NCBI GenBank assembly: GCA_050273025.1
Contig: CP158635.1
Coordinates: 17,174,001-17,238,000 of the forward strand
Length of the DNA stretch: 64,000 bases
Direction: 5' to 3'
Source of the DNA: Cenococcum geophilum
Lineage: Eukaryota
Shown here: positions 922-57,719 of the stretch, in pieces
How positions within the stretch are numbered: the stretch's first letter is position 1
Layout of the letters: the number at the start of each line of letters is the position of its first letter
Notes under the pieces: generated by a model
Seen by the model: only the letters and a program-made list of their open reading frames with translations
Database searches by the model: none
Told to the model about the DNA's origin: nothing
Translations under genes and position numbers: made by a program

Positions 922-3900
922 ATGCCACTAAAAGCAGCTACTATAACGCCATTAACGGCAGCAACTACTTTAAGGATAGGAGGTGATACTAATATAGTAA
1001 ATACTAACTTACAGTAACCTGTGACGGTTGGATAGCTATAGGAAATAGTTAACTAGCTAATAGCTAATAATATAGTGTTAGAAGAAAGACTTAACGGAAT
1101 AGGAGCAGTAAAGATTAAGCTACTATTAATTAAGAGATTTATAGGGGAGAGGTTAAAGCTTAAAGGATTCCTTACGCAGATATACTTTAAGGTCTTATAA
1201 GAGGGAGTAAAGTTACCTATACCTGTGGATCGGATAGCCTATACAGGACTATTCTTATTAGAAAAAGCACTTAAGTAGTTTAAATTTTACCTTACGGAGA
1301 TATAGGTAAATAGAATGACGACCACTAACTAAGACGTGCGATTTATGTTCTTAAGTTAGGAAGGATTCGCAGAATAACTTATACAGATATTTAGAGACCC
1401 GGAAGAAACAACTATAGTAAAAAGAAAACTCTAGAACCTTATACAATAAACTTTAGTAATTAAGTATATAATATAGTTTTAGACACTAGTAATATAAGTA
1501 GAGTGGAATAATAGGGCGCTTATAGTATAGTATAAACAGGGACTTAAGGCTAAAGTTTAGGACGCGATTATCCTAATAGAAGATATAGATACCCTAAGGG
1601 AACTAATAAATTAGGCGATTAAGATTAATAATTAGATCTACTAAAGGGAATAGGCTAAGAGAGGCTAGGATAAAGTTCTATAGTTATATAAGGCGCAGAG
1701 TATATAATAATAAAAGCTAAGTTAGAAACTATAGTATAGTGTAGAGCTAATAGACCTAAATAGCACTAAAGAAACCTATAAGAAATAAAGCAAACTATAG
1801 AAACCTAGAGGATAAGAATTAAGTAATTAAAGGTCTAAGGAGCAGAGGCTAAATTAGGGATCTTAATAGTAGAAGATATTTAGGCGGACTCTATAGTAAG
1901 AGAAATAGTTTAAAGAAGGAGCTTATATAAATTGCGGAAAATAGGGTTATTATATTAGAGACTATAGAAGTGGATAGAGTTGCTATATAGTAAAGGGTAT
2001 AAGACTAGTAGATAATATATATATATAAAGGGACGATAATATGCTATAAGGAATAAAAGAATGTTTAATCTAAAGTTTTATGTTTTATTATAATAACGCA
2101 TACTAAATTTATAAGAACGCTAAGTATAGCGTAAGCTATTAGCTATAAGAGCTAATATCTATAGGATATAAAGGAACTAATAAACTAGTTCGCAGATCGG
2201 ATATTAAGGACAATAAATTTAATTTAGGCGAAATATTCCGTAATAATAAGGTAATAAGGGCTGCTTACTAGGAGCGAGTAGACCTTAGAGATATTATACT
2301 AGAGGTAGAGGATAATTCCACTATAAAATAGGGAATATTAGTAGGAATTAAAACCCTACTAAATACGATGTCTATCGCTTTATAAGACGTAAGAGAAGTA
2401 GGACAGTAAACTACTTCGGCACTTAATAAAGGTAAAAGGCTAAAGGCTTAAGATTCTTATAGCGAGATAAGAGATAACTAAGATTCTTAAGACAAGATAA
2501 GGTAAGCTTAAGGACCTATAATAGATAATAACCGATAGAGTAGAGCAGCAGCTTAGTTTAAAAATATACGAATAAGCTTAGGATGGAAGTTCCTATAAGC
2601 ATAAGATTCTTAAGATAAGATAAGTAAGATTTAAGATTCTTAAGACAAGATAAGAACACTAAGTAAGCCTAGTTAAACTAAGGCTAGAGCTAAGCTTAAG
2701 TTAGAAGCAAGCTCAGGATTAAAGAGCCTAAGGGGTTAAGAATTTGGAGTATAAATTAAGACACCTATAGATAAGAGGTAAGGAGCTTCTTTATAGATTA
2801 GAGAATCTGTAGCATAAATAGCAATTAGACTAGGAGACGAATATATAGACCTAGAGGATTTACTAGTTAAATAAAGTGTTTAGACTAAAGATTAAAAAGT
2901 TAATACTAGGATTAAGAAGTAAGATAACTTCGAAGATTAGAGCGTAAGGCATAAACTAAAAGAAACTATAGAAGAGTTTAGGCAAAGAATTATCATATAG
3001 TAAGAACAGAAACTAGACAAAAGATCTAGTATATTAGGACGTATAAAGGATAGAGTACTAGTATAAAGAATTACTAATAGACTAAGAATAGGTATACTAA
3101 GAGCTAAGTGGCTTACTAAATTAGAAAATAAAAAGGATCTAGGGATTCTAACTAGGTTTAAGAAACGATATATAAAGGGCTATTATAATGTAGTAATAAG
3201 AAGATACTTCCTTATAGACAGACTATATATACTCTAGCAGCTATATTAAAAGTGGTATAGGTAAAGGCATAATAATAAGTAGGAAGATTTCTATATATAG
3301 TTGGATGAAAAAGTTATTTAAGACTACCCGATTATAGAGAAGGCCATAACGCATATTAAAGGAGCCTTAATTATAATATTAAAGGATCTAAAAGAATAAT
3401 TAGAGGACTAGAGAAGCAAGAGATGTATCTTAGTACCTATAAATAAAGTTATAATATTTAGATTAGTATAATAAAGGTTTAAACTTAGGGATAAAGATAA
3501 GCTAAGAGTTAACCTAAAGCACCTAGTATATTATACGTTATTATGGATTATATGCGTAGATAATATATATAAAATATATAAGAATCTAAAGGAAAAAAAA
3601 TCGGAAATACCCTATAAGGATATACTAGATAATAGATAAGCAATAGTATAGGAATGCTAAATATATATATAGATGGCATCCAGCAGAGGTCTAAGAGGAA
3701 GGAAGTTTAGTACTTTAACTAGGAAGATTCCTTACGGAAGAATGCTTAGACGGACAATAGTGGTGAAAATGCCTAGAAAACACGTATTTATAGTATATTA
3801 AAGATAAAAAGCGAACTAGGTATTAGCTAAAGAACGAGCTAAGTATACTAGGATTAAGCAACTAATAGTTAGGAAAAGTAGAGGCCTATAGGACTAAAGG

Positions 3901-36952: not shown

Positions 36953-39900
36953 TATCGGCAAAATATTGTCCCTTATAAATGACCTTAGCTGCTAAAAGTT
37001 GGCGTCGTTGGTGGGCTATTAAGGGCATTAACCAACTTAATAAACTAGCCTATGTTAAGTTCATTTAACATATAGCCTACGCGTAGCCTATATATAGCCT
37101 ATATAACCTACATAACCTACGCAACCTGCGTAACCTATATAACTTATAATTTTAGATAATAAAGGCTACTTTAAAGCCGTTTATAAAGCTATTAAGATAA
37201 ATTATATATACTTCTTTATATAATCTATTATATTTACATCTACTACCTATCTACATCGTCTACCTATCTATATTACCTACCTATCTACATTACCTACCTG
37301 TCTACATTACCTACCTATTTATATTACCTACCTATTTACATTACCTACCTATCTACATTATCTACCTATCTATATTATCTACCTATCTACATTTGTTGGG
37401 AATAAAGGCAAATGGTCACCATATAAGGCATATTGCCGTCACGTGTGGTAAGTTGCCGTTACGTGCGGCAAGTTGCTATCACGTGCCGCCGCGGCACTAG
37501 CGTAGTAAGGAACCTTAAGTTCCTTACCCCTTTCTTAAAGAAGAAAACAGAACAGAACAATTATTATACTATCTACGAACCGTAGCTACGTAATATCCCC
37601 CTTATATAACCAACACTAATTAGTGGTTAACTTTACTATTATACTATAGAGCAGCTAGGTATTCCACTAAGAAGAGATAAGCCACTATACCAGTGCTACT
37701 CGTGCTAAAGAAAGCTATCTTTTAAGGTTAGAACTGGTCCTAAACCTTAAATAGAACTCTTCTACGAATCTAAGGATTTAAAGGCTAAAACTGGTCCTAA
37801 GCCTTTCTAAGATTATAGATTCTTGCGTCCATTATATAGAATAACACGCTTTATAAGTCTTCGCGATTTAAGGCTAGAACTAGTCCTAAGCCCTATAATT
37901 GTAAATATACGTTATAAACGCGTACTAAACGATAAATATATATTACGAACGCGTACTAAACGACAATCCCTACACTAATAACACTTCCCTCCCTCTAAAA
38001 ACATGGCTATACCTACTTTAAACGACTAGGAAGACTTCTTACCACTAGGGGTAGCTTTATACGCGAAACTTATTAATAAAAATTAGGACGAATTTACCTT
38101 TAATATAATAACTTATACTGTAAAATAAGTTAATAGCTTTCTCCTATACCATATTATATTCTACTAAAGTAAATACTATACTAATATACAGCTATGGGAA
38201 TATTTTAGGGAGGATTTTATAGGATAGACCGCTAATACCTAGGCACTTAGCAATATTAATATTATTTAGGATTTTTAAGACTTCCTCCATAGGAATAGGG
38301 TATATATTACTAAGAACGGTAACCTAATTACTAGTAATATTTAGGCCGTTATTACTAGTATAAAAAAACTAGTATAGACGGAAGCTAAGATTATATATTA
38401 ACTATAGAAACCTAGAACTAACCTATATTCTTTAAAAGGCAACTTTAATTTAAAACGAAACCCCTAAAACGCTACTCTTCTACCTAAAGGTACTCTCCTA
38501 CCTAGAGGTACTTATTCTCTACCTCCGCCGCCTTTAGCTCCTTTACTCTAGCTAACTAGTAACCCTTTACTATAAGAAGTTATAAATCTAATAAAGGTAT
38601 ATTTAGATAAAAAGAAGAAGTTTAAAGAAGAATTATATGATATACTTAGAGTAAAACTATAGGTCTTCTATAACTGTTGCAATAAGGTTAGAATTTAATG
38701 CCACTAGTACCACCACGCTTTCTCCATTATGTTAAAGGGATAGGCAGTAATATTATATTATAACCATATTATGGGTAAAAACTATAGCTTTAATATAATG
38801 TTTTAGCTCACTAAAGCCCACTTTAAGACTAATAAGAATCGCTAACTTTATATATCTAAATAGCGAGAGACTATATTCTAGAGAGTTATTGCTTCTAACC
38901 TAACAAAGACTTATTTAGAGTGCCTTTAACTACTTTTTAATAAACTCTAAAAAATTTAATACGGACTTATCGAAACTTACTAAAATAAGAACAGCCTAAG
39001 GGACTAGGTTATTTTAGCATGCTATAGCGTTCCTAAGTATAACTTGGTGCTATATAAACCTATAGATATATTTAAAGGAGTATATACTAAGCTACGCTCT
39101 GCTATAGGTACTATAATACAAATATAAGAATCTTAACAGCTCTATACTAAAAGCCCTACCTAACTAAGCATTCCCAACTAATATGATTATAACTAGACTA
39201 ATTGAATATATAGCGGCCGTAGTAGGGAATACGGTAAAGGGTACAATTAACGTTAACTATAAGGTAATTATGGAGGTCCTTATGGAGGTTTATTTTAAAA
39301 TAATTGCTAAAAGAAGTGCTATGTTTGTAAGAAGCCAAATTACTAGTTAACTAGATACTCCCTTAATAAGCGAAAAGAGGCATATAATAAGTTCCGTTAG
39401 AGTATAAAAAATGTTAAAAATTATAAGGTTACTATAGCCTACTTTTAAAGCTTCCTAGTTTAATATAAAGGCGTAGAAAACCTTAAGGGTAAGGTTAATA
39501 AGACTAAATAGCTCCTTATAGATATGGAAATTGAGGACTACTTACCTAACTAATACTTTACTAAGTACGGTAAGGTAAATGGTATACAAACTATTGCTAT
39601 TCTTAATAACTAATCTACGCTCTATTTTATTACGAAGTTAGATATCTTTAATAAGCTAAAGGAGAGCTCCGCGTTTTCCTTTAATAATAGATACTCGGTA
39701 AATGTCTTCTATAGTATTATGCCGGATACTAGAGCCGTAGGAGTATCTATAGTAGGAGAACCTTAAGTTCGAGCCCTTTAGCAGCTTAATAGCTCTATTT
39801 AGATTAACTATTTAACGGCAGGCTAATACACAATTCGTTTTAGCAAAGGTACTACAATCTCTTTTGGCATAATTAGGGTTTAAACCCCCTTAGGGTATAT

Positions 39901-42900
39901 TACTTTTTACGTTGTTCCTACAAACACCCTATTTCTATTTTGCATTAGAGATATAGATAAACTAGGCGTTAAGCTTAATAACCTTAAGAATATGCTTATA
40001 TAGGGAGATAATTGGGTGCCTATTATACGTAAGTAGGGTCACCCTTAGCTACTCCTTTAATAACCAGAAAAGAGTGTTACTTAAAGCTATTTAACTAAGT
40101 TAGAGTTACGCCAACTATACCGTTGTTTTAGTTACCTATTAGTTCACTAATTACTTAGGGTTCTTTAGCAAGTAGGCTATAAAGTTAAGGTTAAGGTAAT
40201 TAAGCATCTTATAAAATACTGCTACTACTACTAAATAAACTAAAGGTCCCCTGGCCGATTTAAGTTCACCCTTAAAGATAACTATAACTTTAACTTCTAT
40301 ATTATTGTTGACGTTATATACCTTAGCGGCAAGCTAGTACTCTAAGTTGTTAACTTCTTAACCTCCTTCTAAGCCGCACAATTCTTAAAGGATATATTAG
40401 CTAGGAACGTATAGGATACCCTTTAGTTATACTAGATTAATATCTACCTAGGACCCCCTAATTAAATCGTCTATAATATAAGAAAGAACTTCTTATCTAT
40501 AGAGTTCCGATAATAAATAAAGGCAATGGTAATTGAGGTTAAGGAAGTCCCTGTTAAGGCATATAATAGTATTAAAAAAGTAGAGCGATATTACGCGCTA
40601 TTACGCCGCGTATATAAGATTATCTCTTTAGAACTAAAGGACGCTAGCGAAGAACTTATCTTATAAATAGCTATTAAAGCTATTAACGATTCCGCTGGCC
40701 TAGATAGACTTATACCTATATTACTAGTCTTTAGCGCCTACCTATAAATAACTAATAATTCTCTACTATCTCCCTCCGTTATACAATAAGCTAAGGCGAT
40801 TCGTAAGGTAATAAAGGAGGTGTAATGCCTCTATGCCATATACCAGGTTAATAATATACTAGGAATGAAAAATAGCCCAAATACCTTAACTACGCTTAAT
40901 CTGCCACTCTAGTCTAAAGTACGCATATAGCGTAAAAGGGGAGGATAGTTAGGCCTACATTAACTTATTGCAATTAATAGTTAAACTTGCACTATTTAGA
41001 TGCCTTACGGACCCACCTAATTTCGTTTAATTGTTATTAAGCCTTACTATAAAGATAACAATTCTAAGCCTTTATAGGATGCCCTAGAAGATACCCTAGA
41101 AGAGAACTACAATTAATATGCTTTAGAAGGCGACTATAATCCCGATACAATTGTAGTAGATACGCCACAACTATAACGCGGTAGAGGTTGCCCGAAGGGA
41201 TTATAAAATCGCTAACACCTTATTAATTTTAAAGAATAATTTATTGCCGCCATTAAGAATGAAGTTAAGTTATTAATGGCCTTTATAATAGCTAAAGAGA
41301 AGGCTAACTTTAAGCTCGCAAAACAGCTCTAAAAGGAAGGTCGTATTATAACCCTAGGAGCTCCTTTCTAAGCATCTAATAAGTAGGAGATCAACGGTCT
41401 TATTGTAAGAGGAGTCTTTAAATTTAAGAAATATAACCCTACTAAGTTTAATAGAGTTCGCATCTTTAAGTTAAGAATAGTTAATGAGATTAAGGGCAAA
41501 GCTACTAACGCCCTATTTGAGAAATTAAGGCTTATTATTTAAGGTTATAACAATAATAGCAAAGAGATAATTCTTATATAATCTCCTATGATTTAACGAG
41601 CTAGTTAGCGAGTTATTATTATATTAGCTCCCTCCTTAATAAAGAATAGAATAGCAGTTTATTTATAAGATATTACTTAAGCCTACACCCAATTAGAGAT
41701 GCACCTTTAGCGCTTAATATTAGCATACCTTCCGGAGTAAATTCGCCACCAGTATCCTAAAGACACGATTATAGTTATGCTTAAGCTATTATATAGAATC
41801 GCAAAGGTAGGAACTTACTAGTAGGCTACCTATAGTAAGCACTATAAAGAGAAGCTTTTAATAACTACTTCTATATTTGATCTTTACTTCCTTATTATAA
41901 CTATAGGAACCCTATTTAGAATTATTGGTATATAAACTAATAATATAATTATCTTAGGAGACGACTAATTCTTAGCTCTTAAAGAGGATAAGCTAGTAAA
42001 GGCAAATCTCATAACAAAGCTAAAGGAAAAGCTTAACTTAATAATACTATTACTCTTTAATAGATGTATCCTCTCCCTAAATAAGGATTCCATTGCTTTA
42101 CGCCAGAAGGGTTAAGGTAAAAAGATTAACGTTATTAACGTTAATTCCCTAAAGTAAGAATACGTGGAGTAACGCGCTCGCGAAGCTTATATTGCTTCTA
42201 TCTGTCAACCTAAGGCTTTATTTAATCTCTTTGTTGCCGCCTAACACTAGGAACTAACTAAGGACGACATTCTTGCCCTAAATAAACGTCTTTTCTAGCA
42301 AATAAACCATCTTAATTAGGGACTACTCTACGTGCCTATTAATCTTCCTACCGCTAAGCTCTTTATATTTGTTAATAAATCGTTTATAAATAATAAAGAT
42401 TTTAGCTCCTAGTTAGGATATAAGATTATTATCGCGAATAAATTTACTAGAGAGAATAACTTTATAATCTATAGCAATCTTATCTATTAGAGCTTAACTA
42501 AGAGTAAGCGCGTTATCTAAAGTATTTTAGCGTTAGAGATATATAGAATAGTTAGCGGAGTTAATATGGTAATTGTAATTGGAACTACCCTAAAGATAAT
42601 TATAGATTAACTTAAACTTCCCGTTATCCCTATAATCGTATATACCAATTTATTTTCCCTCTATAAGTGTTTAGTTAAGCTTAATACTACAAAGAAGAAG
42701 CACCTTATAATTGATATTATAGCACTTTAGTAATCCTACGAGCGTTAAGAACTCTTTAAGATTTAATAAATTAATGGCTAAGATAACCTAGTAGATGTAA
42801 TAACAAAGGCAAACCCAAATAAGGTACTAGAGACGTTTGTTAACACAAATACTCTATATATACGAGTTAAAGGTTAGGTTAAAAGGGAGTCCCTAGAAAT

Positions 42901-45123
42901 TTCTTAGTTATATAAGGTCTTAAGATATCTAGGAACTTTAACCGGCGGTTAAAGTTATTTAATTAGTTAGATTCTATAGACCCTAACTTAAACCAGCCAA
43001 TTAGGATTTTCCATCCCTAGGATAGAAAATCGCTATTAGCTCGCTTACCGCTAGCGCCTTAGCGGCCCTACTAATAAGATACCTACCCATAACTTATAAG
43101 TAAGAAAGCACTACGTGCTAAGAGGCAAATTTTAGGACAGTGAGACTTATATTACAATAGCAATAGTAAGTAAGGAGGATTAATTTTTGTTCCGCTAGTT
43201 AAGCGGTATATATATATAGATGGCAACTATAAAAGAAGAGTTGCTAGTATTAGGAATAAAGGCAAATAGTCACTATATAAGGCATATTGCCGTCATATAT
43301 AGCAAGTTGCCGTTACGTGCGGTAAGTTACTATCACGTGCCGCCGCGGCACTAGCGTGGTGAGGAACCTTAAGTTCCTCACCCCTTTCTTAAAGAAGAAA
43401 ACAGAATAGAACAATTATCATACTATCTATGAACCGTAGCTATGTGATATCCCCCTTATATAACCAATAACATTACCTACTTATCTATATTACCTACCTA
43501 TCTACATTACCTACCTATCTATATCGTCTACCTATCTACATTATTTACCTATCTGTATCGCCTACCTATCTATATCGTCTACTAGTCTGCATTATCTACC
43601 TATCTATATTACCTACCTATCTATATTACCTACCTATCTATATCGCCTACCTATCTACATCGCCTACCTATCTATATCGTCTACTTATCTACATTATCTA
43701 CCTGTCTATATCGCCTACCTATTTACATCTGCCTATAGTGTCTAATTTAATTCGGGGGAGAGGTCGGCCCGATTAAAGGCTCTAATTAATTTGAATCGTT
43801 CTCCATAGCCGTTCGCTGGCTATATATTCGAACAGTAGTCATCTAAGGTGCCTCCCTAGGAGGCCTTAATTCGATTTAATTCGGTAATAGGCTCTAGATT
43901 AATTCAATTAATCGATTAAATCATTCGTGGTGTTCGCTGGCTGGTTGTTCAAACGGTCGTCATCTAGTTCTAGTAACGGTCGTCTACTAGTTCTGGCGAC
44001 GGTCGTCTAGTTCTAGCGACGGTCATCTGGTTCTGGCGACGGTCATCTAGTTCTAGCGACGTTCGTCTAGTTCTGGCGACGGTCGTAGTTCTAGCGACGG
44101 TCGTCTAGTTCTGGCAACGGTCGTGGTTCTAGCGACGGTTATCTAGTTCTAGCGACGGTCGTCTAGTTCTGGCAACGGTCGTCTAGTTCTGGCAACGGTC
44201 CTCTCCTACCTACCTACCTGCCTACCTACCTACTTGTCTACCTACCTACTTATTTATCTACCTACCTACCTACCTACCTGCCTGCCTGCCTGCGTTAGTG
44301 TCTAGTTTAATTTAGGGGAGGAGTTGGCTTAATTAAAGGCTTTTATTAATTTAAATTGTTCTCTATAGCCGTTTACTGGCTATATATTTAAATAGTAGTT
44401 ATCTAGGGTACCTCCCTAGGAAGTTTTAATTTAATTTAGTAATGGGCCAATATTAAAGCTCTAGTTTAATTTAATTAATTAATTAATTAAATTATTCGTG
44501 GTATTTACTAGCTGGTTATTTAAATAGTTATTATTTAGTTTTAGCGACGGTTATCTAGTCCTAGCGATAGTTATCTAGTTCTAGTAACGGTTATCTAGTT
44601 TTAGCGACGGTTATCTAGTTCTAGCGACGGTTATCTAGTTCTAGTAATAGTTTTCTATTAGCTACCGTTCTAGTGCCTTCTAAGGTAGGAAGAATATAAG
44701 GAAAGGTAAAAAATAAGGTGGCTATAAAGGGGGTAACTTAGTAGAGGTATGTGCGGGGACCTAATATAGAGCTTTATATAGAGCCTCTATATATAGAGCT
44801 TCGCGTAAAGCCTTATATAGAGCCTTTATACGTAGAGCTTTATATAAAGCTTTATATAAAGCTTTATATAGAGCCTTTTAAGTATATAACTTAAAAATAA
44901 TATATTATATTACCTTAATTATATATTAAGGAATATATAAGTTAGTTAACTGCGTATTATTTAACTTTTAAATATATTAAGTTGGTTAATTATAGATTAA
45001 TTATAGGTTAATTGCGTATTATTTAACTTTTAAATGTATTAAGTTGGTCAACTGTATATTAATTACGCGAAACGCGCTTAATAATGTTAACTTAAAACCT
45101 AGCCTACGAATATTTTCCCGATA
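36953..45123. mobile_element. Non-autonomous CATC-terminus TIR element, copy 2 (~2.1 kb native, split by Copia)
   Basis: Left end tatcggcaaaatatt; right end aatattttcccgata. 2-bp TSD AA/AA. Colinear with copy 1. Confidence 0.87.
37394..43469 (+). mobile_element. Ty1/Copia LTR retrotransposon (complete, RIP-inactivated)
   Basis: 222-bp LTRs at 37394-37615 and 43248-43469. TSD ACATT on both sides. ORF from ATG ~38003: CYVC.K..CW...H knuckle ~39315, protease IMPDT.A...ST.G ~39715, integrase LH..FGH.S/C..CQ ~40115-40235, RT DI.QAY ~41668 and Q.DD ~41935, RNase H FVD.SF.NN.D.SSQLG ~42370. Order PR-IN-RT-RH. Confidence 0.95.
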
Positions 45124-45329
45124 AATAACGCGTTTTTTTTTAATGAAAATAATTATAAGACCTAAAAATACCTAAGTAATAAAAATAATATATTTTAAAA
45201 GCCTAGGTTCTGTTATATAATTAATTAACTTTAGGAAATAATATAAAATACTAGTGTTGAGTTATTTTAATATCCGCAACCTCCGCAACGCGGATATTGT
45301 TTACGCGCTTTACGAATATTGCGAAACCC

Positions 45330-45427
45330 GCTTAGACGTAATTCAGGTGGTGCACCACAAACGTAGTTAGTCACCCGCTTGCGGGCCGATTGACTCCGCA
45401 CCAACGAAATCACGTCTAAGCTTACTG
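45330..45427. other. GC-rich nested inverted repeat; candidate right terminus of the AcademH-like element
   Basis: gcttagacgtaattc (45330-45344) pairs with gaaatcacgtctaagc (45406-45421). Inner arms agttagtc/gattgact and cccgc-tt-gcggg. The terminus assignment is inference. Confidence 0.4.
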
Positions 45428-47429
45428 AGGTAAAAATCACGCCAAAATCAGCTATAGGCAAAACTCCTTAGTACGATACCGGGTATATAACGATACCATT
45501 AGTATTACAATCTACACGCCCTAATTAAGCCTTTTTTGGTGTAATTAACGATAATCTAACTTTTACAATATTGTTAGGTGCCTCTACCAAAATCGGTATA
45601 ACCAGTTTTAATTCGCTAGATTTAGCCTTACCTTACCGCAAGTTTAGCCGTTAACTTTTATTAAAATCTGTTAAATTAAACCTTAGATCTTATTCTCTAT
45701 ACTTAATTCTACCTTATTAATTATAGGTAGGTCTCGAAATTCTAAGAGGCTATATTATTATGGATTCTCTAACTTTAAACGCTAGAAAATACGCGCCTAT
45801 ATTAGGAAATTTTTTTTAGGGCTCGTTGTTACGGTTTGCGGCAAATTGCCGCAAACCGTACGGCTGTGGTAGGTAGATATAGTTAATAGCAATTTGCGCA
45901 AAACGTATATTTTATAATAAAATCGCAGCACCTAATAGCAAATTGCGGCAAAATGCTACCCCTATAAATAAATTATAGTAAAATGCTACCCTATAAATAA
46001 ATAGCGCGCAAACTATATAAATTATAAAAACTGTATAAATTGTATAAACTATACGAATTATATAAACCGTACAAATTGTATAAACCGTATAAATTATATA
46101 AACTATATAAATTGTAAAAACTGTATAAATTATAACTATAAATTATAATTATATTATATAATAACCAAATTATTACATATTCCCATAGATTTCTATAATA
46201 TACTTTTAAATATATTTATATTATAACTATATAAAATATAGAGCTATCTACTTTAGGCGTTAAGGGGGAAGCCTCTTGCAGAGGCTCTAAATTATCTACC
46301 TACCTACCTACCTGCCTGCCTGCCTACCTACCTACCTACCTACCTACCTACCTACCTGCCTACCTACCTACCTATCTACCTACCTACCTATTTGCCTACC
46401 TACCTATCTGTCTGTCCGTCCGTCTATACCTACCCATCTATACCTACCTATCTATGCCTACCTATCTATATCACCTTAATTTAATCGATTAATTAAATTA
46501 TTTATTATATTTGCTGGCTAGTTATTTAAACGGTTGTTATATGGCTCTAGTAACAGTTATATAGCGATAATAACGGTCGTCTAGCTCTAACGGTTATCTA
46601 GCTTTAGTAACGGTTATCTGGCTTTAGTAACGGTCATCTAGCTCTAGTAATGGTCGTCTAGCTCTAACGACAATTATCTAGCTCTGGCGACGGTTATCTA
46701 GCTCTGGCGACGGTTGTTTAGCTTTAACGACAGTTATCTAGCTCTAACAGTCGTCTAGCTCTAGTAACGGTTATCTGGCTCCGGCGACGGTCGTCTACCT
46801 TTAGCAACGGTTATCTAGCTCCGGTAACAATTATCTAGCTTTAGCGACGGTTATCTAGCTCTAGTAATGGTTGTCTAGCTCTAACAACAATCGTCTAGCT
46901 CTGATGACGGTTGTTTAGCTCTAATAATAGTTGTCTAGCTCTGACGGTTATCTAGCTCTAGTAATGGTTATCTAGCTCTGGCAACGGTCGTCTAGCTCTG
47001 GCGATAGTTATCTGGCTCTAGCAACGGTTGTCTAGCTCTAACAATAGTTGTTTAGCTCTAATAACGGTTGTCTAGCTCTAATAACGGTTATTTAGCTCTA
47101 ATAGTTGTTTAGCTTTAGCGACGGTTATTTAGCTCTAGCGACAGTTATTTAGCTCTAATAACGGTTATCTAGCTCTAATAGTTGTCTAGCTCTAATAACA
47201 GTTATCTAGCTCTAACAGTTATCTAGCTCTAGCAACAGTTGTCTAGCTCCGGCAATAGTTATCTACTAGCTGTTATTCTAGTGTCTTCCTAGGTAGGGAG
47301 GATATAAAAAAGGGTAAAAAATAAGGTGGCTACTTAGGTGTATATAGGGGGTATATTTAGCAGAGGCATATATAGAGGCTATTAGGAATATAGCAGGGAC
47401 CTAATAGTAGTATATCGCGCGTATATATA

Positions 47430-48324
47430 AAGGCTTTATATAGAGCTTTATATAGAGCCTCTGTATATAGAGCTTCGCGTAGAGCCTTGTATAGAGCTTC
47501 GCGTAAAGCCTTATACAGAGCCTTTATATATAGAGCTTTATATAGAGCTTCGTAGAGCTTTATATAGAGCTTTATACAGAGCTTTGTGTAGAGCTTTATA
47601 TAGAGCCTTATATAAAGCTTTGTATAGAGCTTTGTACAGAGCCTTGTATAAAGCCTCTATATATAGAGCTTTATATAGAGCCTCATATAGAGCCTTATAC
47701 AAAGCTTTATATAGAGCTTTGTATAGAGCTTTATGTAGAGCTTTATATAGAGCTTTATATAGAGCTTTATATAGAGCCTTATATAGAGCCTCTATACGCA
47801 GAGCTTTGTGTAGAGCCTTGTGTAGAGCCTTGTGCAAAGCTTTATGTAAAGCTTTATATAGAGCTTCGTGTAAAGCTTCGTGTAGAGCTTTATATAGAGC
47901 CTTTATACGCAAAGCTTCGTGCAGAGCTTCGTGTAGAGCTTTATGTAGAGCCTCTATACGTAGAGCTTTGTGTAGAGCATTGTGTAAAGCTTTATATAGA
48001 GCTTCGTGTAGAGATTTATACAGAGCTTCGTGCGAGCCTCTGTACGCAGAGCTTTGTATAGAGCCTTATGTAGAGCCTTATATAAAGCTTTGTATAGAGC
48101 TTTGTATAGAGCTTTATGTAGAGCTTCGTATAGAGCTTCGTGCGGAGCTTTGTGCACGAATTTGTGCAGAACTTTGTATAGAGCCTCGTGCAGAGCCTCT
48201 GTACGCAGAGCTTTATATAGAGCCTTATATAGAGCCTCGTGCAAAGCTTCGTGTAGAGCTTCGCGTAAAACTTTATATAGAGCTTTATATAGAGCTTCGT
48301 GTAGAGCTTCGTGCAGAGCCTCTG
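47430..48324. repeat. Expanded 12-bp minisatellite (agagct[t/c][t/c][a/g]t[a/g]t)
   Basis: Directly visible; produces the spurious ALYR/ALYK ORFs in the track. Confidence 0.96.
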
Positions 48325-48590
48325 TATTAGGAAAAAATATTTTAGGTACATTGTTGCAAGCGAAAATCGGGGTCTGCAAAACCTGCGTAAGTTGCAATTT
48401 TGGTAGTTTGCGGCGATTTGTAGCAATTTGCTATGAACACATAGATAGGGTAGGCGCGTGTATAGGTAGCCTATGTGTTTGTAGCAAATTGCTGCAAATC
48501 GCCGCAAATTGCCAAAATTGCGACTTACGCAGGTTTTGCAGACCCCGATTTTCGTTTGCAACAACGAGCCCAAAAAAAAATTTCCTGATG
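48325..48590. repeat. ~266-bp fold-back (arms ~120 bp) forming the right end of CATC copy 3
   Basis: gcgaaaatcggggtctgcaaaacctgcgtaagt...aacacatag pairs with ctatgtgttt...acttacgcaggttttgcagaccccgattttcg. Confidence 0.92.
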
Positions 48591-49054: not shown

Positions 49055-49454
49055 ACGTACTCCACAAGCGAGCCGCCACCCCAAGCGAGCCGCCACCCCA
49101 ATCAACTTTCTGCGATGCGTCACAATGGCTCAACCATCTAGTATACAATTGACCTGCAAAGAAGCAGATATTATCCTTACTATCTCCTCTATCGATCAGA
49201 ATCAAATTCAGAGCATAAAGCGTACTGCATCAACGCTCCGCGATCAACGCGCCAAAATCACTACGCGACACAATTATGTGCCCAATTTAAAGAAGCTTAC
49301 CAAGCTTAAAGAGAAGGTAATTATCAGACACATACTGGACCTAGACTCGCGGGGGTTTGCGCCTACTCTAGGTGCTATAAAAGATATAGCGGATAAACTG
49401 CTTGCTACGCATACCGCTAGGCAGGTTAGCAAGAACTGGCCTACCAACTTCGTT
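49055..49454 (+). mobile_element. Fot1/Pot2 (pogo) DNA transposon 5' end, truncated by CATC copy 4
   Basis: TA followed by ACGTA-type TIR with an internal direct repeat caagcgagccgccacc x2. Confidence 0.88.
49125..49454 (+). pseudogene. Fot1-type transposase N-terminus (HTH psq-like plus CENP-B HTH)
   Basis: ...STLRD.R.......KLT..KEKVIIRHILDLDSRGFAP....KDIADKLLA.....VSKNWPTNFV. The ORF tail to 49520 is read-through into the inserted TIR. Confidence 0.9.
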
Positions 49455-49858
49455 CATCAGGAAAAATTTCTTTGGGCACGTTGTCGCAAGCGAAAATTAG
49501 GGTCTGCAAAACCGGCGTAAGTCGCGATTTTGGCGATTTGCTGCTACTTATATGGATTTCTGTAAATTGCTATAAATATATAAGCTACTTACGCAATTGC
49601 TGCAAATTACTAAAATTGCGACTTAAGCAGACCCTAATTTTAGCTGTAATTAAAATACTACAAAATTGTAACAAAAATACTATAAAACTGCAATAAAAAT
49701 ACTATAAAGCTATATAAAGCTCTACACGAAGCTCTATACGAAGCTTTATATAAGGCTTTATATAAGGCTTTACACAAAGCTCTACATATAGAGGCTCTAC
49801 ACGAGGCTCTGTATAAAGCTCTATATAAAACTCTATACAAAGCTCTACGTATAAAGGC
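49455..49858. mobile_element. CATC-terminus element copy 4 (one end only, inverted relative to copy 3)
   Basis: catcaggaaaaatttctttgggcacgttgtcgcaagcgaaaatt, a partial fold-back to ~49645, then an inverted 12-bp array. Interrupted by the Gypsy C LTR; the other end is not in the window. Confidence 0.82.
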
Positions 49859-52800
49859 TAGTAATTATATTAGACTAGGGTAATATTATAAGGGCGCAAA
49901 GAGGCTTCGGGGCAGATTTGAAGGAATAATATAAATTCTATCTAAATCTATAGGTATAGCTCTTATAGAGAGTAAGACATTATATAAAGAAGAGAAGGGA
50001 ATAATAAGAGAATTATATAATTAAATAGTTAGGGGTCTTAGTGGTTAATACGTGCGCATATATACACGCGGTCTTTAACGGACTTTAGTAAAATTCAATT
50101 AATCTAGCAGAACTTGGCAGAAGTTAATTAAGCTATTAAAATTTAGTAAAATTTAGTTAAAGCGTTAGAATTTATCTATTAAGGGTTTTACTGAGATATT
50201 CCTACTATAACTAGGCCAGTCCCGTTATAGTACTCCCCCTTTAGCCAAAGGTCTAAAATAATTTAATTTTAGTTAAGACTTATTGCTTATTACGTTTTTA
50301 TACTTATATTAGGCGGCGGTATAGAGTTTTACTAATTCTATTATTAAATAGACTAATTAGGATTTTCTATCCCCGGGATAGAAAATTGCTATTAGCTTAG
50401 TTAAGGCAATGTCACGGAACCCCACCGCAGGGGCCTCTATAGGAGAGCCCCGTGCTCTCGCGCACACCTCGCGTACAGCTTATGTCAGCTACGCGTAGGT
50501 ATATCACCTCCTTACGCCCTCGACCCTTACGATCGATCGCGCAATGTCTTATAGACTCCTCAAATACATACGCTTTGTAGCCACTGCCCCCGTCCCATAA
50601 CATTACGTTGCGCCTTTTTTTTTTTACCACCGACGCTCAGCCTACGACCAATTCTACGTCTCTATAATACTGCAGGCGCTGCCAAAAGCAGCATGTCTAC
50701 GAATTACCTCACTTTATACTTCTAAGGAACCTATAATAGTAAGACGATATTCCTTACTAGCTACTATATTAAACCTAAAGAATAATCTAATACCTACACT
50801 TAACCTACGACGCTAATTAATCCTAGGAGAATTTAATTTATTAGCCCTAGCCTTAACCCCTAAGGAGACGGACACTAATAATATCATATTTTTTATTAAC
50901 TATATAACTACGGATAAGCAAACAGAAGGGCTACTACCTATTAAAATTAAAATATAAGACGCCGAGATGTTTATAAAAATGGTAGCATAAGACCCTAATA
51001 AATACTACCGCCTTTTATAGAACTACTACCTAAAGCTTATATAAGCTAAGATGCGTACTACCTAAGATCGCGATATTATCTAAGACCTACAAGCTTATAA
51101 GGCGCTCACTAATAATATACGTTAAGAAACTAAAGACAACCTCCGCGTGTCTAAATGCGACGTTTAATAGTTAAAGAAGGCTAAGATTATACTAATTACT
51201 ATAGTTACTAAAAAAGAAGGCATAATTAAATACCTATAATCTTAGCTTAATAAGCACATTTATAATAACGCTAGATACCTCTCTACTATATATAACGCCG
51301 CCTAAGTCTTTACGCCCCTGGTAACTTTACCTACTTAACGCTTAATAGAGGGCTAGCGCTAAGTAGCTTTACCTAATAGGAACCCCTACTAAAGTAGTAA
51401 TAATAAAAGCTATAATAATTGGACCTAAACTGCTACTATAGGGTCTAATATACGCTACCCTAATTTCCTAGTCTTTTAGGGAGACTGTAAGGAATATAGC
51501 TATTAAAAGATGCAAATCCGTAAGAAACTAACTTAGAGTGCCTACCTTTTTCTTACAGAAGACACTAAGATTGGCTATATTATTGGGCGAATAAAGGGTA
51601 CACCGTTTAATAGACTCTTCGCCTAATAGAAAACTAGTAGCCCCTAAAAGTGGTAGTCCTACTAAGAAGTCCTTAATAATCTTAACTTAATATACCACGA
51701 CTATAACCTACTAGCTACTAACTAAGCTAAACTATATATCCTAAAGATAAACCCTACTAAATTATTTAATAAATTCTATATTAAATTTTAGGAATATACT
51801 AGAGCCCTTACTTAAGATAATACTAAAGACTAGGAGGACCTCCTTAAAAAAGTTATTTATTACCTTAGTTACGCAGCCGCTAGCCATAACTACAATAATA
51901 TTTGTAATATAGTAGCAGCTCTATAGAAGATTAAATAATAACTAAATTAAATTACTACTACTAACTTTTACCTAAAAACCTCTTTATAGAAGCCCTCTAG
52001 GCCTACTAAACCTATATATACTAAGCCACTAATACCTACTACCTTAAGTACTACCGGAACCAATATTAATTTCTCTATACTAACCTTCCTATAAAAACTC
52101 TTAGATAGAGAGCGTAAGCTACTCCAGAAACTAGGACGCTGCTATAAATGCCGTTAAGAAGGCTATTATTACGATAACCTAAACTGCCTAATAGCTAGGT
52201 TTAGTAGCCGCCGCCTAATACCTAACCTAATACCCTAAATACTAAATATATTACTACGCGCTATTACTATACAAAATAAAGACGTAGTAATAGTAGTAGA
52301 GTTAGATATGGAAGTGGAAAACGCTAAGTCCTAGCCCTAAGTTATAGGTTAGGACGCCCTAATAATAGAGGGATCTATATATTGGCTTACTTAATAGATA
52401 ACTCTATAAAGATAAATAGATAAAAATAGATAGTTTTACCTATAATAGGAACTACTACTAAAAAATAATATATAAGCTATTCTATAATTAATTGCGAAGC
52501 TACTAATAAATTTATAAATACCTAATTTATATATACTTATAACCTATCTACCTTACCCCTTACTAAAGCCCGCGCCTTATAACTCGCTAATAGTAATTAT
52601 ACCGCATAAAAGATTACCTATATAGCATAACTCTACTTAGATATAAATAGGCACTAGGAAGAACTCTAGGCCTATATTATACCACTTACTAATTACCCTA
52701 TTATCCTTAGAATAAACTAGCTTAAATAATATAACCCCACCATTAACTGGAAGAAAAGAGAAATAACCTTTAACTCTAAATACTGCAGAGAGACTTGCCT

Positions 52801-55800
52801 AGGGTATAGCCTAGCCGCCTCTATTTACTCCCTAGGATATTAACCTAAGGAACCCTTTATTACCCCACCTATAACTAACTACCACTATATAAGTGCCTTA
52901 GCCTTCTACCATATAGCATATAAAAAAGGCTAAACCGTTACTGTAGCTTCCTAATTATAACTATATAAGCTTAACAAAGAACAGAACTATATTCTCTATA
53001 GTAATAGAATAGACATAGTTAACCTTTTAGAAGATAACGCCCCTATAGAACTCTACAGACTTTTACCTTTAGACTTTAAGAAGTTTATAAAGCTTAAAAA
53101 AGGACTTACTAACGAAGAACTCTATAAGCTCCTCCTTAAGAGGTACTATAACTTTACTAATATATGCTTATAAAAGAGTATAGATATACTCCCCCTATAT
53201 TAACCTAATAACTATACCATTAATATTAAATAAGGAAAAATACCACCTTATAAGAGACCCTATTTAATATTAAAAGACGAACTTCTAGTTATAAAAAAGT
53301 ATATTAACAAGTACCTTAATAAAGAATTTATTTGTCCTAATATATTACTAGCAGCCGCCCCTATCCTTCTCGCTAAGAAGCTAAAAGGAGGTATTTAATT
53401 CTACGTTAACTATAGAGGACTTAACGCTATTATAATTAAAAACCGATACCTAGTACCGCTTATACGTAAGACCCTTAAGTGGCTTAGTTAAGCCAAAATC
53501 TATACTAAGCTTAATATTATCGCCGCCTTTAACTATTTTTAAATACGAGAAGGTAACAAATAAAAAACCGTATTTATATTACGCTTTAGCTAATTTAAAT
53601 ATATTATTATACCCTTTGGCGTATATAACGGCCTAGGCACCTTTTAAAGCTATATTAATAACGCCTTATAGGACTACCTTAATAACTTCTGCTCTGCGTA
53701 CCTAAACGATATACTTATTTATAGTAATAAACCTTTTAAGCATACCGAATATATTTAAAAGGTCCTATAGCGCCTTAGGGACGTAGGACTTTATATTAAT
53801 TTAAAAAAAATGCAAATTTTTAGTTATAGAAGTAAAATACCTTAAACTAATTATTACTACTAAGGGTGTCTATATAGACCCTAAAAAGGTATATATAATT
53901 ACTAAATAGCAAGCCCCTAACTGCATTAAGGACGTATAAGCCTTCCTTAGTTTCGCTAACTTCTATCGGAAATTTATATACAACTTCTTAGGCGTAGTAG
54001 CACTACTTATAGTAATAATGCAAACAAAGGGCCTTTTTATAAAAGGAAGAAAAACGTACCTACGCTTTACCTAGACGCCTAAATATAAGAAGGCGTTCTA
54101 AGACCTTAAAAATGCCTTTACTAAAGCACCTATTCTAGCTTACTTTATACTAGGATAATAACTCTACCTTAAAACCAACTCCTTAGACCATATTAACGTA
54201 GGCATCCTTTCCTAGATAGGCGATAACAGTCTCCTTTACCTAGTCGCATTTTACTCGTCTAAGCTTATACTATAAAAGTATAACTATAAGATCTATAATA
54301 AAGAACTCCTTGTAATTATATAAGTATTTAAAGAATTCTAACTAGAACTCTCCTTAGTAAAGCCTAATTAGCTAACTAAAGTTCTTACGGACTATTGCAA
54401 CCTTAAGTACTTTATAACTATAAAGCAGCTAAACTAACGCTAAGTATATTAGAACGAGTTCCTCTCTAGTTTTAACTTTAAAATTGTATATAGACTAAGA
54501 GTATAAGGTACCAAACCTAATAGCCTAATATGCCGCTTGTAAGACCTTCCTTAGTCTAAAAATAACCCTTATAATTAGTTCTAATAACAAATAATCCTAA
54601 AAGCACAAAATTTGGCCCTAGGTATACTACCTATAATAAAGCTAACTATACCCTAGCTTTATACCACAGAACTAAAGTTACCTCCTAAAATTAACGAGCT
54701 TATTACTACGGTATATAACGCCTCTATTAACCCATTACTATATTAACTTATTACCGCAAAGACTACTAGCGCCTATACGCTACCTACTAACCTCTAAAGC
54801 TTAGGCTAAATTAATATAGTAGCTTTAGAAGTAAAAGAAAATAGGCTCTATTATAGAGGCCGCCTATTTATCCCTAACCTAGAAAATCTATAACGGCAAT
54901 TAATCTAAATAGCCTATAACCTCTAATTAAGTGGCTACCTAGGTAAATGAGAAACCTATAAGCTTTTTAGCTAATACTACTTTTAGCTAAAAATAATAGA
55001 CTTAGTTAAACGCTTTATAGGCGCCTACTATAGTTATAAGCGCGCTAAGGCCTTTAATATAAAGTACTAAGGACTACTATACCCTCTACTAGTACCTATA
55101 TAATAATAGGCAGATATCGCTATAGATTTCGTTATTAACCTACTACCCTATAAATAATATAGCCATATCTATAAGAACATCCTTATAATAATATACTAAC
55201 TTATAAAAGAGCGCCACTATATCCTAACCAAAGGCGTAGCCGTTAGTGATATTACTAACGCCTTCCTCCGTAAAGTTTACCGACTATATAGGTTACCTAA
55301 CTTAATTACGTCTAACTAAGGCATATAATTTAACTCTAATATATAGAGACAAATCTGCTAACGCCTTAGCATCTCCGTTAAGATGTCTATATCCTTCTAC
55401 TATAAAACTACTAAGTAACTAGAAAACGCTAATACCAATATAAAAGCGTACCTACAATAGGTAGTCGCCTATAGTTAAGATAACTAGGTAGATTACCTTT
55501 TACTAGGTAAATTTGTAGTAAATAACTATATCTTAACCACTATAGGACTTACCCCATTTTTTATAAATAAGGGTTATTACCCCTAATCTGGTATAGAGCC
55601 ACTAGAACCTATTAATAAGAAACTGCCATATAAAAAACGTCTTAAGATGCTACTTACTAACTAGTATATAGACTGTATATAAAATCTACTTAACTACTAT
55701 AAGGGAGAAATGGCCTAGGCTTAAGTAAAGTAAGCCTACTTCGCCAACTATTATAAAACGCCACCACCGGAGATACGTGTTGGCGACTGGGTATAGCTAA

Positions 55801-57719
55801 ATATATATAATATCTCTATATAAAAGCCTATAAAGTCACTTAATTATAAGAACCTTAGCCCCTATTTAATTAAATGAGTTATTAATAGGGGAGCCGTATA
55901 TAAGCTAGAACTCCTATTTACCCTAGCTACCCGCGGGATATGGCCTATATTTTACCTATAGCTACTATACCTTTATTAGCCTAACCCCTTATTAGGGTAG
56001 ATATAGCATAAACCCCTACTAGTACTAATTTAAGATAAAAACGAAGATAAGAACTACGAGGAGTGGACTATTAAACGAATTATTAACTCTAAATACTTTG
56101 GCAAAGGTAGAGGATAACGGCTTTACTATAGAGCTATATACATAGGATTTAATATAGATTAGCCAAAATGGCAACTATAGAAAGACTTTAAAAATACAAA
56201 GGATTTAATTAGCAACTTTTACTACGTAAACCTATAGAAACTGGGCCTAAGTAAAAACTTTATACCTAATCCTCTATAAGAGCCCTTATAGAGTTAAACC
56301 GTTATACATTACCATATAAGGGCAAATTGCCATTAGATTGCCGTTAGATTGCAGTAAAGTATAATTACGTAACTGGAATATCATTAAGATGTCCAGAAAC
56401 TTTAACCGGCGGTTAAAGTTATTTAATTAGTCGGATTTTTAGATACTAAGCCCTATTATATAACATTGTTTTAAGCCTTTAGCAATACCCCCCTTTTTCT
56501 TCTTTTTTATACCTTAAGTGTCCCTTTTATATATATATAGTAACCACAGCGTCGCCGGAGCTCCGCCTTTATAAGAGGGGGGGTAGTATTACGGAACCCT
56601 ACCGCAGGGGCCTCTATAGGAGAGCCCTATACTCTTATACACACCTTATATATAGCTTATGTTAGCTACGCGTAGGTATATTACCTCCTTACGCCCTCAA
56701 CCCTTATAATTAATCGCGCAATATCTTATAGACTCCTCAAATACATACGCTTTGTAGCCACTACCCCTATCCCGTAATAGGTAATAAGTAGAACTAATAT
56801 CTTTATAGAGGGTCTTAGTAAGGCAATCTTAACTAATTAGATAACTTTAACCGCTGGTTAAAGTTCCTTAATATCTTATATATTATATAACCATGTTATA
56901 AACATTATAATATATTTTAAGTTCTTTTTAAATTCGAGCTTCCTGCTATTATGTTTCGTGTATTTATATTAGGTAGTAGTTATTTACCTTTATATCGTGT
57001 CTATCTAGCTAAAGTAAGCCATAAAAAATAGTCCTTGTGGAATTCTTTTACTAAAGAAGGCGTATTAGTCTTAATTTACTTATAAGGTTTCTAGGTTTAT
57101 ATCTTATATCCTTCCTATTTAATAAGAAGTTTAAATTATTTAGACTATATCTTCTATTATATATTATTAATTAAGTTAATAAAGTAAGAACCGTTACCGT
57201 TATTAATAATTATAGAAGGTAGTAGTAGTACTTCGCGAGTTATAGGTTTACCCTTTAAGGGTTATAGCAAGTTTATATAAAATATCGGATATATCTTTAT
57301 CTTAGTTAGTAGTTTAAGCCTATAAGAATACGGGCTTAGTTTCTTCTTAATATAGTATAGGCCCGTAAACTTCTAATCTAGTTCCTTTAAGAGTTACTAA
57401 GTCTTTAGGTTTTATATATTTAGGTAAACTATATTACCTTCCTTAAAGTCCTATACAGGAGCTCGTCCTTTATTTATATGCTATTCCTATATTATTTAAG
57501 CGTACGCTAATTTACATTATAATAGTTCCGTTAACTACTTTATTTAATTAACGAAGTTATATATATTAATTAGTTAAATCCTCTTAATTATAGGTCCTAT
57601 TATATTAATTTTAGGTTATAGTTTAAATCTAAGTTAAGGGTCTTGTCTATAGGTTACGTAGAACGGCGTTACGCCTATTAATTCGTTTCTTATATTATTT
57701 GCAGTAAACTTAGCTAAAG
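49859..57719 (-). mobile_element. Ty3/Gypsy family C, 3' part (3' LTR ~49859-50229, 3' UTR, chromodomain/integrase end 56785-57719), split by Gypsy B and cut by A4
   Basis: Minus-strand PPT aaagggggagtac abuts the LTR at 50229. Minus-strand EL.QKFTGPY.I......YSY.L.L.....I.P.F...LL (~57270-57390) and chromodomain ...IKWEGY...TWEP (~57085-57200). Left LTR boundary approximate. Confidence 0.8.
50410..56779 (+). mobile_element. Ty3/Gypsy chromovirus family B (complete, RIP-inactivated)
   Basis: 193-bp LTRs at 50410-50602 and 56587-56779. TSD GGCAA/GGTAA. PPT aagagggggggtag. Gag knuckle GRCYKCR.EG ~52134, RT YRGLNAI.IKNRY.VPLI ~53410 and AYL.DILIYS ~53696, RNase H, integrase, chromodomain EEWTI.RII.S ~56058. 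Confidence 0.96.

Follow-up and report, generated by a model that had tools for sequence, protein, structure and literature searches.

How short palindromes of the same sequence have come to lie behind the pol genes of both Copia and Gypsy retrotransposons, which to our knowledge are usually regarded as not exchanging sequence, and what such palindromes might do there, are the questions raised by this locus. The window, i.e. the whole stretch of 64,000 nucleotides analysed, is a RIP-mutated, AT-rich nest of fungal LTR retrotransposons with a GC content of about 0.27-0.40, hardly any open frames and a TpA/ApT ratio of 1.66, a RIP signature. An earlier note on this DNA had described one palindrome (P1) in a Copia and in two Gypsy elements (B and C) and a second one (P2) in the Copia and Gypsy C, and proposed either a cis-acting module exchanged between the superfamilies by template switching or a tiny hitch-hiking element. 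Loci outside the window are given by L numbers, and the genome searched comprises 178 Mb in 7 contigs.

Host elements and the two cassettes

The elements of the window, together with the two cassettes that surround P1 and P2 (M1 and M2, respectively), are as follows.

37394-43469, plus strand: Copia, GalEa-type, with the TSD ACATT at 37389-37393 and 43470-43474
37394-37613, plus strand: Copia 5' LTR, 220 bp
37614-37622, plus strand: CTAATTAGT, the CHSeq1 of fungal GalEa elements (PMC5445492, accessible text), directly 3' of the Copia 5' LTR
42891-42975, plus strand: homology block shared with Gypsy family D at its 3' end, with the last four pol codons, the stop codon TAG (42905-42907) and M1
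42923-42974, plus strand: M1 in the Copia, with an AGAT flank, P1 at 42934-42956 and a RIP-mutated CCAAT box on the minus strand (42962-42966)
42997-43068, plus strand: M2 in the Copia, with CCAAT, P2 at 43005-43031, inverted CCAAT and a GCCAAG-like tail; with homology to the inside of a Gypsy LTR
43220-43247, plus strand: Copia PPT, with a short inverted repeat on its two sides
43248-43469, plus strand: Copia 3' LTR
50230-50241, minus strand: Gypsy C PPT; the 3' LTR begins at about 50229 and extends leftwards
50352-50397, plus strand: M2 in the Gypsy C 3' UTR, with P2 at 50361-50387; antisense to the element
50410-56779, plus strand: Gypsy B, with RT_RNaseH domains and the TSD GGCAA (50405-50409) / GGTAA (56780-56784)
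50410-50602, plus strand: Gypsy B 5' LTR; the insertion separates the M1 and M2 cassettes of Gypsy C
56387-56450, plus strand: M1 in the Gypsy B 3' UTR, with P1 at 56398-56420 and a RIP-mutated GCCAAG at 56445-56450
56571-56779, plus strand: Gypsy B PPT and 3' LTR (LTR 56588-56779)
56815-56876, minus strand: M1 in the Gypsy C 3' UTR, with P1 at 56843-56865
56902-57717, minus strand: RIP-broken pol end of Gypsy C, with a Tf2-type SH3 match below the curated cut-off

The pol end of Gypsy C is presumably chromodomain-like. The Copia shows the features of the GalEa clade, namely CTAATTAGT, the 220-bp LTR, the ACATT TSD and, after RIP, the motifs KLRLII and CQPKA, an assignment that is a feature comparison and not a phylogeny; the features given in the accessible part of PMC5445492 are CHSeq1, a TGT..CA LTR of about 235 bp, a 5-bp TSD and the motifs KSRLVI and CQPEA. 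In the LTR pairs of both the Copia and Gypsy B, transitions and a few gaps are the only differences. Gypsy B sits in the 3' UTR of the minus-strand Gypsy C, between P1 and P2 of the latter, and is a present-day case of the nesting that could seed a capture. All four copies of a further family, Gypsy A, in the window lack both cassettes.

Some further observations concern the 3' ends and LTRs in general. The GalEa PPT (43220-43247) is located in the loop of the short inverted repeat, while in Gypsy D, F, G and LTR-b a different hairpin and then a run of T come just 5' of the PPT. Many families reuse TCACGTG, GGCAA-N-TTGCC and TTCTGCC repeats in their LTRs or tails (LTRs at 37394-37613 and 50040-50229 of the window, L080 and L089), and an ORF fragment at 49056-49520 has an apparent resemblance to the N-terminus of a pogo/Fot1 transposase.

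P1 was recovered at all three sites claimed, exactly at 42934-42956 and 56398-56420 and with one mismatch at 56843-56865 (chance 0.01), and P2 at both of its sites, with two mismatches to the form noted in the Copia and three in Gypsy C (chance 0.00). The homology reported around them was likewise found, M1 aligning over 67-68 bp (about 87%) and M2 over 43 bp (91%), and the orientation of P1 and M1 is the same relative to all three elements. M2 of Gypsy C is inverted relative to that of the Copia, as it is in uninterrupted C-type copies. The statement that the elements share no other similarity held within the window, according to a self-BLAST, but not genome-wide, where the Copia tail and a different Gypsy family have a longer block in common.

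The palindromes as first written are RIP products of CG-rich originals. In less-mutated copies P1 reads AACTTCGACCG-N-CGGTCGAAGTT (44 sites genome-wide) and P2 reads GATTTTCCAT(C/G)CC-N-GG(G/C)ATGGAAAATC (220 sites), the centre being a single base that can be any nucleotide; for P1 before RIP, CAA/TTG was assumed at first but fitted only 3 sites, and the CG form of real copies took its place. M1 and M2 are two separable cassettes. In M1 (~55 bp) a GCCAAG site is followed, across a variable spacer, by a CCAAT box, then by P1 and a further ~10 nt. M2 (~47 bp plus tail) has P2 in the middle, set off by 3 nt on either side from a CCAAT box in front and an inverted one behind, after which comes a tail that carries a GCCAAG-like site. 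In the subfamily of the window Copia the GCCAAG site is absent from M1.

The genome-wide search that the earlier note had asked for was performed with RIP-tolerant patterns and revealed 3,201 M1 and 2,672 M2 sites, against 0 for reversed-pattern controls; positions and host families were tabulated for samples. The second arm of the palindrome is transition-only at 3,153 of the 3,201 M1 sites, and in most hosts homology falls to chance 10-30 nt outside the core. With 46 sites for the unmutated inner 15-mer of P1 and 44 for the whole palindrome, there is no sign of a separate pool of sites in host promoters; the two extra sites, which lack the full 23-mer, are at G000:C4:21853075 and C6:18119782. 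A metagenome scan gave at least 122 stretches, and the contexts inspected looked like the same families. Covariation in the stems, also suggested as a check, amounts to one pair in P2 and none in P1. At all 100 of the sites listed the two bases of this inner P2 pair agree, each of the two types accounting for 50 in a count made by eye; it is one two-sided C-G/G-C change which may be a single inherited event.

Positions and orientations across the genome

The first 15 listed RIP-type P1 sites are all situated between pol and PPT (four in GalEa, three each in Gypsy B, C and F and two in Gypsy I), and the cassettes recur at this position among GalEa Copias as well as four lineages of Gypsy RT, i.e. 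B, C, E and a D/F/G/LTR-b group, with 35-52% identity between lineages and 70-85% within that group. In a third Copia type (L135, L137 and L138) M2 is antisense and lies directly where the RNase H region ends. When 221 distinct M1 sites were clustered by their flanks, the upstream side fell into 24 types and the downstream side into 23, in 35 combinations, a count to be read with the over-splitting of families by the clustering (7 of the 24 types upstream belong, as variants, to a single LTR) and a sample biased by the choice of loci. One upstream flank pairs with several downstream flanks across M1, and vice versa. Several GalEa copies lack M1 or its GCCAAG which, together with the absence of both cassettes from Gypsy A, indicates that neither cassette is essential.

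The cassettes are also parts of LTRs. Among 30 unmutated P1 sites with flanks inspected, 13 are located inside the ~180-bp LTR of a canonical Copia, which has RVT_2, Pol_BBD and SH3 domains above cut-off, gag and rve below it, and M1 in both LTRs. Here M1 belongs to U3 and lies 22 nt before the TATA box, and a location within the LTR, upstream of TATA, was seen for M1 in L061, L079 and L109. In the solo LTR L061 (180 bp, TSD GCTTC) the CCAAT box is found at 1491, P1 at 1501-1523 and TATA at 1546, a layout that is by its sequence a putative promoter geometry, antisense to most of the 3' UTR copies. M2 in turn lies inside both ~200-bp LTRs of the Gypsy L114 and also within the solo LTRs of this element; inspection of the M2-bearing Gypsy LTR revealed no clear TATA. 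RNA reads from 4 of the 24 runs listed were placed on L061, and the raw run gave 312 reads, 17 of them over P1, without any pile-up of starts in the LTR; all reads over P1 had the first mate on the plus strand (library strandedness unknown), the neighbouring flank is another repeat and depth was low. This second, unannotated repeat (L061:1610-2040), possibly a MITE, took most of the RNA and DNA depth and shows opposite-strand joints.

The Copia LTR, Gypsy E and two further elements, family Y and the gag-like element X, carry M1 in the CCAAT-sense orientation and the other hosts carry it in antisense; M2 is likewise found in both orientations. In Y and X, M1 or a degenerate form of it is located ~230 bp upstream of long ORFs, in the CCAAT-to-ORF sense. 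Family Y (L179:778-1140, L140, L269:4080-7193 on the minus strand and L270; at least 44 genome matches) has an intronless ORF of ~1,040 aa (P0001) just downstream of M1 and of a Gypsy-type integrase, and its units are often paired ~5.8 kb apart with ~77% identity. P0001 belongs to a broad family with 609 representatives, of which 7 out of 20 scanned gave weak matches to PhyH 2OG-Fe(II) dioxygenases; both putative metal-binding histidines are missing in P0001, and a sequence search of ESM Atlas and PDB gave no usable match. Element X (L132:1041-3500; also L074, L075, L112, L120, L121, L124 and L128) has gag-like ORFs rich in tandem repeats and without Pfam matches, a degenerate M1 before the ORFs and an antisense M2 after them, and is possibly non-autonomous. 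By eye, the 12-bp arrays at 44759-48330 of the window resemble its repeats.

Origin of the Copia tail

The longer block that the Copia tail shares with Gypsy begins inside pol. GalEa L202 ends with WVKRES-PEIS* and Gypsy D (L190) with KDKNA-PEIS*, with the same stop codon, while GalEa L131 ends with WVKRE*. The only long match between L202 and L190 is this block, 100 bp at 95%, which in the window Copia corresponds to 85 bp at 79%. Sister GalEa subfamilies have kept a relic of a Gypsy poly-G PPT after M1, followed by LTR-like sequence that runs into M2, and the 3' UTR of GalEa L118 matches a Gypsy LTR over 161 bp at 79.5%. The in-frame junction, the 100-bp block, the PPT relic and the LTR relic thus show that M1 and M2 of the Copia are a captured Gypsy pol end, 3' UTR, PPT and LTR, a tail that deletions then shortened. 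Another locus, L115, looked like a chimera of Copia RT and Gypsy integrase, but nesting is the better reading, with a Gypsy I-like 3' end and other sequence in between.

These results support the exchange across superfamilies proposed earlier and, in the case of the Copia, place it at an in-frame junction with the 3' end of a Gypsy. Template switching by the RT would be the simplest route, the alternative being nesting in a tolerant 3' UTR and subsequent deletion. Both P2 alleles occur within several Copia families which, together with flanks that recombine across M1, points to repeated exchange, and we regard it as very probable that the cassettes have a history of exchange between families. 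The earlier note would have withdrawn its module if the homology extended into a simple chimeric element, and in part it does; the M1+M2 arrangement of the Copia is a chimeric capture, but this does not account for the ~55-bp core that a second Copia LTR and several Gypsy RT lineages contain.

Function, rival explanations and known systems

Regarding function, we lean, if only slightly, towards M1 and M2 being putative LTR-type promoter or enhancer cassettes that act on double-stranded DNA. Four points favour sites at the DNA level, the occurrence of both orientations with intact asymmetric flanks, the retention of the GCCAAG-like hexamer, the fit of the CCAAT boxes to CCAATVR and the geometry in the LTR. 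The hexamer is kept at 181 of the 221 sites and in 31 of the 35 flank combinations (background 12.9%), with spacers of 10, 12, 13 or 14 nt. The unmutated CCAAT contexts (CAG, CAC, AGC and GGC) all match CCAATVR, and the contexts TAG, TAA and TAC can be read as RIP products. The CCAAT box would then serve the CCAAT-binding complex (CBC; CCAATVR is the consensus in the accessible part of PMC7144946) and GCCAAG would be a PacC-type site (GCCARG in that of PMC3618310), with the dyad as a site for some further factor. M1 may have originated in the Copia LTR, the direction being not proven, and after capture erosion would have spared the cores of the sites if these boost or insulate transcription of the element in either orientation.

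Several results count against the regulatory reading or are neutral to it. Perfect dyads of 23 and 27 bp exceed the usual length of a factor site, CCAAT and GCCAAG are short motifs, and M1 of the window Copia has no GCCAAG. The CCG-N-CGG centre is possibly akin to the everted sites of Zn2Cys6 factors, which it recalls. The bipartite CBC:HapX site, with RWT exactly 12 bp after CCAAT, is absent from the unmutated copies inspected by eye, where M1 has ACC and the inward-facing left box of M2 TCC or TGC. In six within-family pairs the core was not more conserved than the flanks, a comparison of low power with few transversions, and a promoter scan with bacterial models, not suited to a fungus, found nothing. 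A wider version, in which one shared, orientation-independent enhancer or anti-silencing cassette would be read by CBC, PacC and a dyad factor, switch Copia and Gypsy families on together and also serve as a homology hub for swaps of 3' ends, is a reading that we consider rather unlikely.

Of the other explanations, a possible one, to which we give roughly one chance in four, is that the cassettes have no function in the 3' UTR and are debris of LTRs and 3' ends, spread by hairpins that stall the RT, with the shared 50-100 nt as a landing site for template switches. The capture junctions with their PPT and LTR relics, the reshuffling of upstream and downstream flanks across M1 and the presence of both P2 alleles in the same Copia families all agree with such passengers, the tiny divergence apart from RIP may reflect recent exchange, and in plants nesting prefers 3' UTRs, according to the accessible text of PMC6911290. 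Survival of a discrete CCAAT and GCCAAG while the spacer changes in length and sequence is left unexplained, as is the drop of homology to chance so close to the core in most hosts. A hairpin located at the genomic RNA's 3' end and serving dimerisation or packaging, as the earlier note had considered, or else the priming of RT, could let unrelated families co-package, and genomic RNA includes both U3 and the 3' UTR. The palindromes fold as stems of 10-12 bp (z -1.3 to -5.3 in 5 folds), as any perfect palindrome does, and the concordant two-sided change in P2 would suit a stem, although a lone covarying pair may be one inherited event and a DNA dyad fits it equally. Ty1 dimerises via palindromes, but its PAL sites are in the 5' UTR (PMC6844567, part accessible), and Rfam at gathering score gave 0 matches at 4 loci. 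The one-base centre is free to vary, the cassettes are parts of LTRs, and the asymmetric CCAAT/GCCAAG flanks are kept although the cassette is inverted in some hosts; since CCAAT and GCCAAG persist in either orientation and across variable spacers, promoter or enhancer sites in DNA are favoured over RNA hairpins, which we find improbable.

The thousands of copies and fairly sharp homology edges would suit a MITE-like element inserting into 3' UTRs, or the hitch-hiking element of the earlier note. This is contradicted by the absence of any consistent TSD or TIR at the cassette edges in 12 contexts (only unrelated 5-mers and one 6-nt inverted match) and by the placement of 15 out of 15 first-listed sites between pol and PPT of five LTR families, neither the behaviour of a hitch-hiker nor the scatter of an ordinary MITE at random positions, and the solo occurrences do exist but are solo LTRs with their own TSD; we consider it very improbable. 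Convergence or a RIP artefact is hardly credible, given that the less-mutated, CG-rich copies form perfect palindromes and have their flanks in common and that the reversed-pattern controls gave 0, even though RIP has lowered the complexity of the sequence as reflected in its TpA/ApT ratio. The regulatory reading, and with it the protein-binding site among the options of the earlier note, is the one that we favour on the strength of the motifs and their arrangement. If the cassettes are regulatory, they would offer a handle on the joint amplification of many families in a RIP-active genome, for example by pH signalling via PacC, and the wider version, if true, would amount to a shared transposon regulon spanning the Copia/Gypsy divide.

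Compared with known systems, the fungal CBC and PacC sites are matched by M1 and M2 in sequence, CCAATVR and GCCARG, without the bipartite HapX signature (PMC7144946, PMC3618310; accessible parts). PAL1 and PAL2 of Ty1 are also self-complementary sequences in the RNA of an LTR retrotransposon, but differ in being located in the 5' UTR, family-specific and without a CCAAT context, as far as the accessible part of PMC6844567 describes them. The CHS of GalEa elements (CTGATCAGT or CTAATTAGT) is, like M1 and M2, a short palindromic non-coding motif common to families of one species and stems from the same clade as the window Copia; it replaces the PBS right after the 5' LTR (PMC5445492, accessible text) and is here separately present at 37614-37622, whereas M1 and M2 have another sequence, lie at the 3' end or in the LTR and cross superfamilies. 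Hybrid LTRs of Ty1/Ty2 (PMC3511429) and TRIM chimeras of sugar beet (bioRxiv 10.64898/2026.03.01.708851) resemble the present case in that families trade LTR and internal modules through template switching, but in the accessible parts of these reports the partners are related families or non-autonomous elements, while here a coding Copia and Gypsy swap 3' ends with an in-frame junction in pol.

The closest analogue is the RM box of Sireviruses, which shares with M1 and M2 the palindrome, the CGG/CCG core, the position upstream of the LTR TATA, the occurrence in divergent elements and a proposed cis-regulatory role (PMC2829016, PMC4728375; accessible parts). In PMC2829016, as far as accessible, RM boxes also precede an extra 3' ORF and an inverted repeat is found at the PPT, as here, and there are 8-32 boxes per element with CGG..CCG polarity in one plant Copia genus. 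M1 and M2 differ in having a single copy per site, the order CCG-N-CGG, a tie to CCAAT and GCCAAG, and hosts that are both Copia and Gypsy elements of a fungus. In the literature, covered mostly in openly readable form, neither the cassette nor an exchange of 3' ends between Copia and Gypsy in fungi was found described; the supplements of PMC5445492 could bear on the cassette. LTR cis-modules and recombination between families are thus known, and what is unusual here is the crossing of Copia and Gypsy, with an in-frame capture of a Gypsy 3' end by a Copia mapped and one 55-bp cassette marking about 3,200 sites in many families, so that classification of families by LTR or UTR can mislead in such genomes.
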